Source: Pocillopora damicornis (lineage: Eukaryota). Taken from it: a stretch of 64,000 bases of DNA. A program made the position numbers and the translations under genes. The stretch covers positions 1-64,000 of the forward strand of contig NW_020846637.1 in the NCBI RefSeq assembly GCF_003704095.1. The letters are read 5' to 3'. Under the pieces are notes generated by a model that saw nothing but the letters and a program-made list of their open reading frames with translations, did not search any database and was not told where the DNA came from. Positions 5,569 to 13,246 of this stretch are shown here, one piece after another; positions within the stretch are counted from its first letter, which is position 1, and every line of letters begins with the position of its first letter.

Positions 5569-7041
5569 ACTGATGGCGACTTCCACTGCTATATAGTCCT
5601 AAAGCTTGAATTTATGCCAATGTTAGTTAAGGGAAAAATGAGTATTGCGCAACAAGAAGTAATGATGTTAATTACCTATTCTTCACTAATTAGAAATATA
5701 TGCGCGCGCATCTTTACATTTAATGAGCAGAAAAAAATCACCAAAAAATTCGATGCGTACAAGCAGATGCGCAAAGAAATCAGAGGAGCTACAGTGCTTC
5801 ATCTGTTTAAGACGCTACTTTGCTAATACTGCGTCTAAATAAATGCTGGGATTGACCAACCTTGTACCAGGTCCCCAAGAGGCATGTTGTTTCGCGTAGC
5901 TTCGATCTTTTTCATTGTAGCGTGAGAAACAGATCCAAAAACCCACAAATTGGAAATAAAAGGTTTTCGTTAAAATTTTGTACCTTCCGGAATGTGTGCG
6001 GTCATTTTCACTTTCCCACACAAATCAATGATCTCCTTGGCCTGTCATGGAGAGAAGAAAGGTGCAAAAATACAACTACAAAAGAATTTGCGAAGCACTT
6101 TTACCTCTGTATCTCACACATCAACAACTACAAAGATTGAGGCCACGCAAACAAAATGTCCCTTGAGGGACCTATTACAGGGTTAGGCAATCCTTGCGTT
6201 CATTCTAACCCCAGTATTAGAAAAGATAGCCAGCTAAATTGTATGGTCGTAATTCGATTTGATCTGTGAAACTGGTTATACTGCAGGGTTGCAATCTGTT
6301 TACGTACCCGGAAGTTCCAATTTGGATGCCACATAATCAAGTGGCCCCAGAACTTAATCTCTGAATAAGGGCATTGATGTAAATTTTTCCGTTTCCAGGC
6401 TAGTATATTTTTGGCATTAAATGCCACGAAACTTTTCAAATAACTTCCGACAGGACTTTGTATTCGAAATAATGTTGCTATAGATAAGTTTTGTAGAAAG
6501 ATAGAATATTTAAATTTTGATCGAGTTCTCATTGATTTGTTACCAGTTTTCTTATTCTCGTAATGGATGGCTTGCGATGTAAAGCTGATTTCAATTTGGC
6601 AACATTTATTCCCGAACACTGAACACAGCAAGCAGTAGCTCTTTTCTCTAAGAAAACAATTAAGTGTAAACCAGGGTTTAGGACAAAACACTGATCAAAT
6701 TTATCAAACAAAAGGAATTGCCAAAAATTGGTTTTCTAGAAGAGTTACAATACGACCAACAAAACCCTGAAGACATTTTTGGTCCTAGTTTTGAAAGCAA
6801 ATTTTATTCATTTAAGTTGTGTACTACAATTGCGTTAGTATCTTAATGTTAAGCCTGCACTCCGATTGGCTGACTTACTCTTTCATCTCATATACAGCGA
6901 GTTGAGAATATCCGGGACTTCATCAATAAATATGGTATACAGAGGTTTTTCTAATTAATGGCTTTCGAAATTAGGTTAGTGAAAACTTTCCATCAACAAA
7001 AATTTCGAGATCGCCGCTCATTTTTCATAATCAGAAAAATT

Positions 7042-10000
7042 CTACAACTCTTGGTGTGTATCATCACTTTTTGTTTTCCATTCCGTCTCCTCGTTCTCAT
7101 CATCGTTATCACTATCATCTTCATCATCCTCCATGTAAGCGTCATTTGGCTCCGGACTATCCATTCCCGGGGGGATTTCCGGCTCTCCCCCCCACTCAAG
7201 AAACCGCTGGATGGCACGGCGCAGGTTATTTTGTACTTCCTGCTTAGTAACCTGGTCTGAGACGTTTGTCTCGTTGCGCAGTTTATTAAAAATCTAAAAT
7301 CAAAATTAAGAAATTAAAATTATTTTAAGACACATTGATTAAACTAGCGATGACTTCCAAAGCTGTCGATTGTCTAAGATCATCTAACTGCCGTTCGAAA
7401 AGGAGCTGGCAGTGGCATGCATATAGTGTCGTTTATTTTTCCCTTAAATGGATGTTTTGAGAAACAGACCGTGTGCTAAATTGACCAAACCAGAAAAGGG
7501 CTTTCAATCTGGAAATTCCATTCTGTTAAACGTAACTTAAAACGCTGCAATTGGAAGTTTTTAAATTACTTATAAGAGTAACAGCCTGAAGAAATCAAAG
7601 GTTTGCTTTTGGTGGACGCTTATATTATAAATCTGGAAGCTTCTCTTATTTCTGAGAGAGAAACAGAAAATCAGCAAAGACTAAACGTCTAAACCGTAGT
7701 CTACTTACAAGCTCTGCAAAAACTTCGGTTCCCTGTGTAGCCTGGTTATAGGAAAAAAAAGTTGTCATCAAAGTGCATGAACTTAAAAAAGTAAATGGAA
7801 GGAACTGAAACATGGTGCTGTTTCTTCATTGAATGTATGGCTAACATTTACGAAAATTAAAGAAAAAACTTCTCAAAACAAAAAAGGCTAACCAACCCAA
7901 AATCTTACAAAAATAAAACAGTCTCCAAGAGCTCAAAAAGAAAGGTGTATTTACTGGCGTGATAACTGTGCGGAGAAAGAAAAGAAATACACCAAAAAAG
8001 CAGGAAAAATAGCAGAAGGAACGACACGCAAGCACTTGTCAAACGGCATGCAACACATACATAACAAGCCTCTAAACACTCACCTCCACATAAGCTCGGA
8101 TAAACTTGTCCCTTGACACGAGACCATCAAGAGCCAAAAGTTCCCTAATCACATCCCTGGGGTTTAATCACAGATACATAGGGAATACTCATTAGTTATG
8201 ACTTGGAGGGGGTTGGAAGATTTTGGAGTTTTTTTTTAGAGGGTGCGGGGGTTTAGGGGTCAGTCGGTGTCAAAAGAGCATAAAGAGGGACAAAGCAAAA
8301 TTGATTGCCAGAGGGGGGGGGGGGNNNNNNNNNNNNNNNNNNNNNNNNNNNNNNNNNNNNNNNNNNNNNNNNNNNNNNNNNNNNNNNNNNNNNNNNNNNN
8401 NNNNNNNNNNNNNNNNNNNNNNNNNNNNNNTAGGGCTACCTTGGGATGTGGAAAGTTCTGCATGACTTTGATAAAAATCCCTCAAAATCATCCTCACTTA
8501 AACAAGAGATATGAGTGTTTACCTGACATTTGCTACATCAATAACTCCATACTCTGCCTCCTCTGTGTTACTCACGTCCGTTCCTTCAAATGCAAGAACA
8601 GTTTGCCTCATTTGTTCACGGGTTAGCTTCAAAACCTCTTGTTTGGTTATAAATCCTTTTTTGTTACCACCAAGCCAATCAAACATCTGCCAGCCAAATA
8701 AAGCATTTTCATCAATTAAAAAAAATCATTTTTGTGACTGAAAATGACATATCAGGCCATGAAGAAATCATGACTGGCTGAAACTGGAATACAATTTAAA
8801 TTAAAATGAAAGCATTACATTGCAAATTATTGGCTGCTAAGATGCCATCACACCATACATAAAGACTATATATATTGTCTATAATGGGGTCACATTTCCA
8901 TCACAGTTTCTACAATGGGTAAGACAATTCTGGTAAGTAGGGATTTGAATATAGGAAGATTTGCAGTTAAAAATTGTAACCATAAGACCAAAAGCAACTA
9001 AGGTGGGGTCTATAATTGGCCAAAGAATAGACTATAATAGGTTAGCTGCACATACCCAGTAAAAATTGACCAAAGCACCATTCCCCTCTCCCTCCCCCAG
9101 ATGGGCTTTGGACAGCTACAAATGCCCCATAGAGACACAAATTGGAATATAGTGGGAAAAGGTTGCGAGAGACAACTTGAAAATCAAAAGGATTTCTGTT
9201 GTCCCATGTATATTTAACTTTTGATCATGGCAATACCTGAAGCCCTTAGCACCTAAAATGAATTCTTCCCCTAATACCTCAAGGAGGTTTATATGCCTTG
9301 GCAAGACTCATTTAATGAAACTTTCTAAGGACCAGGAATATTTTTTCCAGATACCAGAGGTTTGAATTTCAATGAAAAAATTGTTATACTGACCATTAAA
9401 GCCTGTTGCCTGACTCCTTCAACATAGCTATATAGCTTGTGTACCTTCAGGGAAAAGGGAAAAGTAAACTCTCTTCACAATCATATGCCTTGCCAATTTT
9501 TAGACATAATAAGTGAGTCTCACCTGACACACATAATAATCCAAAATGCTCCTGTTGATCATACAACTTGAAATGCTTATTATTTTTGAAGGCTACTTTT
9601 TCTGCCATTTCAGATTTATAATAACAGCTCACCAGTGGGGGTCACTTTGCAAAAATATGATTTATGAGATTTTACATCTTTTCTGTCTCAAACATCACTC
9701 ACAGGGACCTCAAAAGGGCTACTTGTCACATTGAAGGAAATTTTTAACTTCACAGCAAACCAATCTAAAATAACATAGCATCCCTAAAAATCACAACCAA
9801 AGCCCATAAACATCAGCAAAGGGTATTTAAGATTCCAATATGAAATTCTTGTGTAATATCATTTGTTTAAATTCAGAGAAATTAATAAAAATGCGAGTGG
9901 TACACTCTCCTTACCTCATCTTCCTCTGTAACGTTTTGGATTTTTCTTAAAATTCCATCTTTATCAAGCTTTTCATCCTTTCCAAAAAAGTCCAGCATAC

Positions 10001-13000
10001 CTTCTCTAGAGTAAATAACAATGTGAAGTTTAAAATCATCATCCCAAGAGCACTTATCTCATTAATGTGTGACATCAAACAGAAGTCAACACTTAGTTAC
10101 TATGTTGCCCTTGATATGCCACACTCTCACTCTTAAACTATGGACCTGAGTCACTGAAAGGCTTCTCATAGCATTATTGAATGAATGAGGAGCTGTATTT
10201 ACTTAATATTAAAAAAAATGGCATGCCACTAAATTAACCAAGAGAAAAGTTTGTTTTCTTTAGCAGCAAGTGGTTCACACACATACCGCTAAAATTTGCA
10301 CAAAGCTTCTCCTTATGGTGGCTTGTTAGAGCAATGGGAAGCATGTATCTGAGAGCCTAAGTTCACATACTAAAGATAACTTCTGCCCCCACCCTCTCCC
10401 TACCTAAGGACATTTAAAGGCAGCATTTATACCAAGCTTGACACAGTTGTTAACAGGTATATTATTAGTGTCAACTATAATTTTGTCATATCTGATGCAG
10501 AAATAATGAAAAGTGACCCACTATTTATGGTGTAAAAAGAATCTACAACCAGTTGTTAAGAAAACATTAACTAGTTGAAATTAGAAAATAACTGAAATGA
10601 AAATTAAGTGCCACACATGCATGAAGCCTGTGGTTGGAGTGAAATTTGACAATATGTGTCATTTGGTGCTGTTTCCTTTTTCCCCAAGTTAACTGTTGAT
10701 TTGAAAACACATAACCAAAAGCTACTTTGTTGATACAATTTTGTCACAGTTTTGATTAATTGGTAACAGGACCTTGTGTCTTCCAACTAGGTAGACATAA
10801 TTATACTCTCTTGTATGATTACAGGCAGAACTGGACTCTTCTTAAGCCTATTACCACTAAAGAAGCTGTCACAGCAAAACCTTCATTTCTTATCAAATTC
10901 CTCTTGAAAACTTTTCCTCCTGATTAGGTCCAGTAAGCTCCAAATAAGAGCATAAGTAATGTTAAACTTTGGCTTTAGTTTCCAAATTCCCAAATTAACC
11001 CTTATTACCAAACAGAAAATAAAAATAAAAATAAAGTTCAATTGAATACCTAACTGACTCCAAGTCTGTGTTACCCATACTCAGATTGCCATGTCCAGGG
11101 TATTCCCAGTCTAACTCCATCTCACTCAGAGGTTTGAAACTTAAGTTCTCATCACAGCCAGTGAAATCAATGTCATCAACACCATCCAGCCGGGAGAACA
11201 ACAAGGCTACAGCCACATTATTGGTACCATATGAATTCACCTGGTGATAGTAACCTTTGAATAGAATATTATATTGGCATTTAAGAAAACAACATTCAAT
11301 AGAAATGTATCTCAAAACTTTCAGTTCAAACAAATCTATTTGGTCAACATACTATAATGGTGATGAATTCATTTGAAACCTGGAACATGTCTGAGTAAGC
11401 TATTTTCAATTAGTTTTCTTTAATGATCTCAGAAAGTAAAATTGTTTTAAGTTACATAAGTCAAATGTTAGACAAACTACAGGAACACCAGTCTGAAGAT
11501 CAAATTCTTAACTATCATTTTAACAGGTGCAATGTGTTTCCAAAGCTGAATAACATATAAAGTAATGAGGTGAGTTGCTTTTACCTATAAATCAAGAAAT
11601 TTTCAATTAATATTAAAAATATGTTTTTAAGGTTTTGTGGCTAGCTACAATCTTGAATCCATTGTGAAAAAAACACACCATTTCATGATATCACAACATT
11701 TAATGAGGGTAACATTTCAGCAAATAAAAAACAGTAACTTAACTTTAAGAGCCACCTTACTTTTCGGTAAGAAGAGGCAGTCACCAGCATTTATGGTAAC
11801 AATGGACCAGGGGACTTCAGAAACCTTAGGATACTTCAACAGATCAACTTGCTGAATATTTACGCGTGAAAATCCACCAACATTTTGTGGAGGCTCCCAT
11901 GCTTTGTATATCTTATCTTCATATTTGTACTCTATCAGTTTCCATTCCTTGGTACCATTGTATAAACAGTTGATAGCATTGTATGCATCTTTGTGGAGTA
12001 TACTTTTGGTGCCTCCCCCACTCATCCATAAATCTACTTCCACAAGTCTGTCCTTCAAAAGGCCACAAGTCAGGGGGGGAATGACTGTCACATCACGCCA
12101 CATGGGAGTAGGGAGTTCCGAGACAATGTAGAGATTATTGTTTTCTTTATGGTAGTTATTGATGAAGTTTCCTTTAAAAACAAGAAGGAAAATAATCACA
12201 CTGAACTGAAATCAGAACAAGAAATAGAAGTTGGTCTGAAAGCTATTTTTCATTTAAGAAGAATTTTCAAATTTTTGGAACTTTGAAACAAGTTTGCAGT
12301 TTGCAGGGGTAACAACTAACCCTTAAACTCCCAGAAGTGTTTAAACATGTCACTTTCCGTGTCATATCCATACATTAGCAAGCAAACAGGTGATGACAAT
12401 ACTCTAACTTATCAGGTAAAAGTTGTATTTTGATTTCACAACAAATTCAAATCACTAATGTACAAGGAAATGTGAAGCAGGTATAGAGGGATAGAATTAA
12501 CAATCAGATGGGCCTGGAACAGTTGACATACTCACCAAGATTACCTTTAGAGCACTTACGCTAAAGGTTAAGAGCCTCGAAGGATCCTTCTTTTCAATTA
12601 AAGTATTCATATTTGTGAATCAATTATTACTTGATTCTTGTGCCAGAAAAAAAGTCTTATACCACACAATTGGTTTGATTGTTTTATTCGCTCTCGTGAT
12701 TAAAATAGCAGTAACAAAATCCTGTAAGCAATACTGGTGCTTCTGTTTTGTGGTGTATATATATCAACATTCTACTGAGAATAAGTGCGAGAATTGAAAT
12801 TTTACTCCAACTCCGAGCCATTAAATATTCCTTAAAATTTTGAAATTAATGAACAAAAGATGTAAACTTCTTAACTCACCAATTGTATCCCTACCGACTC
12901 CCTTTGCTCCGATCGGAACTTTAGAACTCTTTTCTTTCTTTCCTTCTAGCCGAACCTCTAAATCTGCAAAATTTTCCTTCAGATACTTATCAGTCCATTC

Positions 13001-13246
13001 AGTAAATGCTCTCCCAAGTTTGGCGGCTCCGCGCAACACAACAGCCTTCGAGGGTCGAACATATTTAGTCCAGAATTCTTGAGGAGACGGCACTTCTTGT
13101 AAATCGTCCACTAAGTTTATTTCTGGCGGCCTGTGAGATCCTAACGGCTTCAAATGACCAACAGGAACATTGAAATCACCGCCAGTTGTGAGAGATACGA
13201 CTTCAACTAAAGCTACAACGAAATTGAAATACAAGCGACGATTCAT
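7042..13246 (-). CDS. Secretory-pathway JmjC (cupin_8-type) 2-oxoglutarate/Fe(II) oxygenase with EF-hand-like region, acidic tail and C-terminal HQEL, 548 aa
   Basis: Nine exons: 13246-12880, 12171-11761, 11254-11050, 10005-9915, 9444-9394, 8686-8523, 8156-8084, 7741-7709, 7293-7042 (1647 nt, in frame, GT-AG). Hydrophobic N-terminus (MNRRLYFNFVVALVEVVSLTTGG). JmjC motifs FWTKYVRPSKAVVLRG, LWMSGGGTKSILHKD, GTKEW and INAGDCLFLPKSYYHQVNS give an intact HxD...H triad. Ends ...DDTHQEL*. Confidence 0.88.

Follow-up and report, generated by a model that had tools for sequence, protein, structure and literature searches.

The first 64,000 nucleotides of contig NW_020846637.1 of the coral Pocillopora damicornis (the window analysed here) hold, between 7042 and 13246 on the minus strand, a gene for a JmjC-type oxygenase whose product starts with a hydrophobic stretch and ends in HQEL, and the question is where such an enzyme works and what it acts upon. 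An earlier note, made from the letters alone, had proposed an oxygenase of the endoplasmic reticulum (ER) lumen, possibly calcium-responsive, that modifies secreted proteins. The analysis described here favours, with moderate confidence, a related but narrower answer: the protein belongs to the HRJD family and is likely an ER-resident Fe(II)/2-oxoglutarate (2OG) oxygenase that would hydroxylate arginine (or lysine) on clients of the secretory pathway, while its EF-hand-type region is likely structural, and not calcium-sensing, in this coral.

The gene is real, spliced and expressed. Its nine exons, all on the minus strand and separated by GT-AG introns, give an open frame of 548 amino acids, and this model aligns without gaps to a public coral protein (P0001, 538 of 548 residues identical), in agreement with the nine-exon structure first proposed. 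Seven of the eight introns are present among the joints of RNA contigs, in four of four runs from four studies, with a three-letter difference at joint 7741/8084 in one run. The eighth, 10006-11049, is absent from the table of RNA joints and is bridged by length in a single contig, X5 record 21, whose pieces of exon 3 and exon 6 stand 142 letters apart, exactly the sum of exons 4 and 5 (91+51). This contig spans exon 3 to exon 9. A 3' untranslated region follows at 6785-7041, with an AATAAA starting at 6808; RNA contigs end at 6785-6824 in three runs and run past 6500 in one. Repeats within the introns, at 10737-10786 and 12318-12489, draw many unrelated RNA contigs and are probably short mobile elements.

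The family has already been described, under two names. Iyer, Abhiman, de Souza and Aravind delineated in 2010 a “secreted JMJD5-like family” of animals, lost in vertebrates, arthropods and nematodes, with conserved cysteines, an N-terminal GHxxxhG motif, a division into three subfamilies and lineage-specific expansions as its defining features, and predicted that its members hydroxylate cell-surface proteins (PMC2938197). Cao and others found in 2019, by using a BLASTP cut-off of 100, genes of the same distribution that they named HRJD; invertebrates carry separate true KDM8 genes, KDM8 is the nearest human paralog of HRJD, and HRJD knockdown lowered the survival of regenerating planarian pieces, for which histone demethylation was proposed (PMC6390904). 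Nagai and others noted the layout of a JmjC domain with an EF hand in 2024 and called the molecular function of HRJDs unknown (PMC11295675). With the family of 2010 the coral protein and its relatives share the motif (GHLKPLG at residues 30-36, 13159-13139; present in 78 of the 93 aligned rows of the long clade and in 132 of the 148 of the short clade), the conserved cysteines, JMJD5 as nearest relative, a spread over invertebrates with expansions, and the subfamilies. With the family of 2019 they share the JmjC and EF-hand layout, KDM8 as the nearest human paralog, and scores above 100 to listed HRJDs (197 bits for TaHRJD6, 194 for TaHRJD4 and 177 for CtHRJD2); by gene id, the listed HRJDs TriadP57500, TriadP54286 and CapteT211217 are P0150, P0168 and P0356 among the matches. 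Judged from these sequence features, the coral gene is a member of the HRJD or secreted JMJD5-like family, and the two are one family. Its subfamily is one of longer proteins that carry two EF pairs and have a remodelled pocket, whereas the planarian HRJDs that were tested experimentally are, on inspection by eye, of the shorter type. The “uncharacterised” system of the earlier note was therefore overstated, as secretion and hydroxylation were predicted in 2010, the genes were named and knocked down in 2019, and the EF hand was in print in 2024.

Where these papers and the present data part is the compartment. The family was treated as secreted in PMC2938197 and read as epigenetic regulators in PMC6390904, whereas the xxEL ends described here point to residence in the ER. 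The main text of the first contains zero occurrences of KDEL, endoplasmic, retention, calcium or EF hand; the main text of PMC6390904 mentions neither signal peptide nor secretion nor ER, and that of PMC11295675 neither signal peptide nor ER. None of these three sources was found to describe retrieval to the ER, the sameness of the two families or a conserved JMJD5-type glutamate, in a literature not searched by the name HRJD, so that later work may cover them. Both ends of the protein bear on this point. The N-terminus, encoded by exon 1 (12880-13246, residues 1-122), reaches its best 10-residue hydropathy, 2.61, at residue 10, and residues 1 to about 22 are likely a signal peptide; the C-terminus is HQEL (7056-7045). 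A later biochemical study of planarian HRJDs, reportedly in existence, may report activity or localisation.

Conservation of the two ends was counted in sets of relatives. Among 96 relatives of 480 amino acids or more, from which four chimeric or partial rows had been excluded, 91 end in xxEL and 78 in [KRHQSA][DENQ]EL, a retrieval pattern that HQEL fits; a hydrophobic N-terminal peak is present in 76, against 20 of 1011 internal control windows. EL ends are found in 87 of 95 new rows of the shorter subfamilies. A hydrophobic N-terminus and an EL end occur together in 82 of 93 long-clade and 117 of 148 short-clade rows; the 93 long-clade rows and 53 of the short clade were hand-picked as full-length, which may raise their share of EL ends, and the counts over 96 and 95 rows were made without such picking. 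Signs of a luminal environment accompany these ends: C158, C191, C254 and C293 are each found in 91-93 of the 93 rows of the long clade and in 147-148 of the 148 of the short clade, and the sequon at N194 is present in 71 of 93 long-clade rows. The coding sequences of planarian HRJDs in the supplement of PMC11295675, read by eye, have hydrophobic starts and end in KYEL and HDEL. In flies, tagged HRJDs were found outside the nucleus and improved the localisation of junction proteins non-autonomously (PMC11295675), a location and a rescue that fit a secretory-pathway enzyme. Taken from the sequences, a Fe/2OG JmjC oxygenase that resides in the ER lumen, is retrieved to the ER and carries a C-terminal region of EF-hand type is thus supported, as the earlier note had it, with retrieval as a prediction and the conservation of the retrieval end in orthologs as an observation. 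In such a protein the signal peptide would be cleaved upon entry into the ER, the KDEL receptor would retrieve the protein through HQEL, and the four invariant cysteines would form disulfides.

The catalytic domain follows directly. Pfam matches Cupin_8 at residues 55-280 (E 3e-31), and the AlphaFold model of the protein has a predicted local distance difference test (pLDDT) value of 89.5 and a predicted template modelling score of 0.86. The closest solved folds are JMJD5 (Z 23.9, root-mean-square deviation (rmsd) 2.3, 227 residues aligned), TYW5 (22.2), JMJD7 (21.8) and FIH (20.6); JMJD5 is also the closest solved relative by sequence (E 1e-10), and its place at the top of both searches is to be read within the solved structures compared. 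An Atlas search returned only unnamed Cupin_8 clusters, and nothing for the C-terminal part. Exon 2 (11761-12171, residues 123-259) encodes the JmjC core, with Y137, C158, W171, S179, H182-K183-D184 (11995-11987), C191, the sequon N194, K197 and C254, and exon 3 (11050-11254, residues 260-328) adds the distal Fe ligand H263 (11246-11244), C293 and a linker. The HKD...H triad and the lysine of GTKEW are found just as first reported (H182-K-D184...H263, K197). Residues of human JMJD5 with metal or 2OG roles, namely H321, D323, H400 (metal), K336, Y272, S318, W310 and V402 (PMC5862942), correspond to the identical H182, D184, H263, K197, Y137, S179, W171 and V265; every one of these is conserved in 90-93 of the 93 rows of the long clade (D184 in 93 of 93). 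Because these residues are kept, the protein is likely an active oxygenase, in which H182, D184 and H263 would bind Fe and K197, Y137, S179 and W171 would bind 2OG.

The substrate is approached through the same relative, since JMJD5/KDM8 is an arginyl C3-hydroxylase that resembles the coral protein in its fold, Fe triad, 2OG C5-binding Lys/Tyr/Ser, W310, V402 and Arg-binding E238. In JMJD5, E238 forms a salt bridge with the guanidinium of the substrate arginine and is required for activity (PMC5862942). E101 of the coral protein (12946-12944) aligns with E238 in two alignments, and glutamate stands there in 91 of 93 long-clade and 137 of 148 short-clade rows; E105, which lies in the following loop, matches E101 in conservation and is nearly invariant in both clades. 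The conservation of E101, at the E238 position, and of E105 favours a basic substrate residue. E101, with E105, would capture the basic side chain as E238 does in JMJD5, and the residue hydroxylated would most likely be arginine, with C3 as the site by analogy with JMJD5 and JMJD7. A further analogy comes from tunicates: a review reports dihydroxyarginine and dihydroxylysine in the secreted tunicate peptide styelin D, and Styela has HRJD-family members, whose link with the peptide would be conjectural. Nothing points specifically to the skeletal or venom proteins that the earlier note had named among possible substrates.

Several points weigh against this answer, at the termini as well as in the pocket. 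Glu15 lies within the N-terminal hydrophobic stretch and is atypical for a signal peptide. The fly constructs carried an N-terminal FLAG tag (PMC11295675), which could disturb a signal peptide and makes the fly localisation weak support. In the pocket, Y243 of JMJD5, which makes a cation-pi contact with the arginine and is needed for activity (PMC5862942), corresponds to K106, with lysine in 80 of 93 long-clade rows and arginine in 140 of 148 short-clade rows, and a basic residue at this position would not favour a cation. The counterpart of N327 is Ala, Thr or Gln in the coral protein's clade, whereas the short clade keeps Asn, and the C-terminal strand Trp (the W414 counterpart) is Leu where the short clade keeps Trp; with both lost, the pocket is remodelled. 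Identity to JMJD5 is about 22%, and the match to E238 comes from sequence alignment and not from superposition, with JMJD5 as the sole basis of comparison since the alignments to JMJD7 and FIH end short of the position. Apart from lacking Y243 and N327 counterparts, the coral protein differs from JMJD5/KDM8 in its added signal peptide, EF region and retrieval tail. Confidence in an ER hydroxylase of Arg or Lys is therefore somewhat above even, and no higher, because E101 and E105 are conserved yet the counterparts of Y243, N327 and W414 are lost.

The alternative that fares best accepts the ER but not the basic residue: the substrate would be another residue, a glycan, a lipid or a small molecule, or else, as has been suggested for JMJD5/7 and JMJD8, the protein would serve as a peptidase or a folding scaffold. 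The three pocket residues lost in the long clade fit this explanation, and an acidic substrate could be accommodated by the conserved Lys/Arg at positions 99, 103, 106 and 183, which lie close to the substrate loop. Protease activity has been claimed for JMJD5/7, TaHRJD6 lacks both Fe histidines, and a role in folding and complex assembly has been proposed for human JMJD8 (PMC5684140). JMJD8 resembles the coral protein in being a luminal ER protein with a JmjC domain and a signal peptide, but according to the same source its signal is uncleaved and a His replaces the Asp/Glu ligand, in contrast to the HKD, EF region and HQEL of the coral protein. What speaks against this alternative is that 90-93 of 93 rows retain the complete Fe triad and the C5-binding residues for 2OG, and that E101 and E105 are nearly invariant in both clades; it is considered improbable, though less so than those that follow.

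The second alternative is the calcium-regulated ER hydroxylase of the earlier note, in which EF hands switch the activity as in P4H-TM. It draws first on the C-terminal region, which is spread over six exons. Exon 4 (9915-10005, residues 328-358) encodes a first, degenerate helix-loop-helix; exon 5 (9394-9444, residues 359-375, 51 nucleotides) the entering helix of the second EF-type unit; exon 6 (8523-8686, residues 376-430) the loop of that unit and a conserved linker with N415 and E420; exon 7 (8084-8156, residues 430-454) a third, degenerate unit; and exon 8 (7709-7741, residues 455-465) only 33 nucleotides. The coding part of exon 9 (7042-7293, residues 466-548) holds the fourth EF-type loop, with the non-conserved sequons N472 and N475, then the acidic low-confidence tail, HQEL and the stop. 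Folded alone, residues 324-499 form four helix-loop-helix units (pLDDT 89) in two pairs, arranged unlike calmodulin (TM about 0.3). The Foldseek list for this region is filled by EF-hand proteins (best E 0.003), the comparison with VIA gives Z 6.5 (rmsd 3.3, 67 residues aligned), and a profile of the short clade matches calmodulin-type chains with E values of 4e-8 to 4e-6. A paired fold of EF-hand type is supported by these weak but consistent matches of the predicted model, so that the check by AlphaFold and Foldseek went in favour of the earlier note, whose two quoted helix-loop-helix segments, acidic run and HQEL are likewise all present in the protein.

Calcium binding by this protein is another matter. 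All four segments appear in the predicted structure with a weak likeness to EF hands, but none of the four loops of the coral protein fits the canonical calcium-binding pattern (a 12-residue pattern of PROSITE type); the best, in exon 6, carries Gly and Lys at its positions 1 and 5, and all Pfam EF-hand scores on the protein are under the cut-off. The calcium responsiveness put forward at first thus finds no footing in the ligand pattern. Canonical loops occur in 15 of 93 long-clade rows (mostly loop 2 in tunicates, or loop 4 in Actinia and crinoids) and, in the short clade, in 17 of 53 and 53 of 95 rows. Because they survive in part of the rows, calcium binding is plausible for the ancestor of the family and for some members. 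Loop residues are poorly conserved, and the loops are lost in most medusozoan rows. Loop 4 of the coral protein retains E-x-N-x-S...T..E, and weak sites could fill in the high calcium of the ER, but the same loop contains two possible glycosylation sequons. P4H-TM, an ER-luminal 2OG oxygenase joined to EF hands, gives a precedent for calcium-linked hydroxylation in the lumen; it differs in belonging to another oxygenase family, in its membrane anchor and in an EF domain that lies within the catalytic domain and has two proven calcium sites (PMC7948501), whereas the EF region of the coral protein is C-terminal and degenerate. A calcium switch is accordingly rated as unlikely here, and the EF-hand-type region would play a structural role in the coral protein. 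The tail that the earlier note had called calreticulin-like is acidic indeed, with Asp or Glu at 13 of 20 residues, but has no Pfam match and a pLDDT below 50 at 524-548, so that the likeness is one of composition only.

The published model of HRJDs as nuclear histone demethylases controlling stem cells in regeneration, which was proposed by analogy with JmjC paralogs and can call upon the planarian knockdown in a paper in which no enzyme assay was found (PMC6390904), is very improbable given the signal and xxEL ends of the family, planarian KYEL and HDEL included, which point instead to an ER hydroxylase of basic residues, the location of tagged HRJDs outside the fly nucleus (PMC11295675), and a Pfam scan of the coral protein that found no chromatin-reader domain.

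The reading of HRJDs as ER hydroxylases concerns a family of considerable breadth. In the first searches, close relatives were named among the listed matches from sponges, cnidarians, echinoderms, hemichordates, amphioxus, tunicates and one placozoan, and a profile search gave 371 clusters at E up to 1e-30. The shorter subfamilies, of about 400-450 amino acids with one EF pair, are named also in molluscs, annelids, a brachiopod, a nemertean, a priapulid and a sea spider, while vertebrate, insect or nematode names are absent among the matches listed. A quick tree of 90 JmjC domains, built without an outgroup and with 22 of 87 branches starred, groups the coral protein with Porites (97 in the Shimodaira-Hasegawa-like approximate likelihood ratio test, SH-aLRT) and Actinia (94), inside a long-form group of 34 rows that includes TaHRJD6 on a long branch (SH-aLRT 92) and no protostome name. 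Two “kdm8-like” clades described in annelids (PMC12153100) may also be HRJDs. Trichoplax TaHRJD6 (P0150), besides the two Fe histidines, has lost the 2OG lysine and the E101 counterpart while it keeps a signal and RDEL, and is likely catalytically dead. Planarian HRJDb, read by eye, has HYH, with His in place of the Asp ligand as reported for JMJD8, a replacement found in 4 of 148 short-clade rows.

Two proteins extend the stated range of the family, P0160 from a sea spider and P0167 from Cafeteria. The latter has a hydrophobic N-terminus and the family active site, and its amino-acid make-up, at 3.66, lies well beyond the 0.48-1.14 of the animal range; its place in the tree is unsure. On these grounds P0167 suggests that the family reaches beyond animals. 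The unnamed environmental proteins P0169, P0175, P0189, P0201, P0219 and P0257 have the family active site too, most of them with hydrophobic N-termini and EL, EM or DL ends, and together with P0167 they are likely protist representatives of a family whose published description confines it to animals.

The surroundings of the gene are of separate interest. A glycine amidinotransferase gene (26848-14978, minus strand) lies directly upstream on the same strand, is 87-100% identical per exon to that of P. verrucosa, and has its stop at a distance of about 1.7 kb from the start of the JmjC gene. Since it has its own stop here, a fusion of the two genes, as in the Desmophyllum model P0085, was rejected as a likely annotation read-through, and since that model joins both genes stony corals likely share this neighbourhood. 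Further along, an open reading frame (ORF) at 36139-36585 (minus strand) is rich in cysteine and has a hydrophobic C-terminus; its Ly6/uPAR match stays below threshold (E 2e-4), and it is possibly a glycosylphosphatidylinositol-anchored three-finger protein. A G/A-rich minisatellite at 44283-45619 and 46667-46838 (periods 8, 17, 25 and 42) produces long spurious ORFs; a similar array lies on the other strand, at a distance of about 1 kb. Two long ORFs rich in Pro, Gln and Ser at 61183-63230 (minus strand), with no Pfam match, are possibly exons of a transcription regulator.

By itself the coral gene is an unremarkable representative of a widespread family, and its value lies in joining the descriptions that two papers gave of one family. 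A wider proposal can be held only tentatively: HRJDs may form a large and ancient class of arginyl/lysyl hydroxylases resident in the ER, which vertebrates and insects have lost and some protists possess. They would supply the missing enzymes for the hydroxyarginine and hydroxylysine of secreted proteins of invertebrates, styelin D among them, and they would act on regeneration and epithelial barriers through matrix, junction or signalling proteins and not through chromatin. Members of the family carry database names such as JMJD5-like, and the names “KDM8-like”, “JMJD7-like” and “TYW5-like” inflate the lists of invertebrate chromatin enzymes. The architecture of a signal with an xxEL end shifts the search for HRJD substrates to the ER, where the earlier working model was epigenetic, and the conserved JMJD5-type glutamate names the first chemistry to assay.

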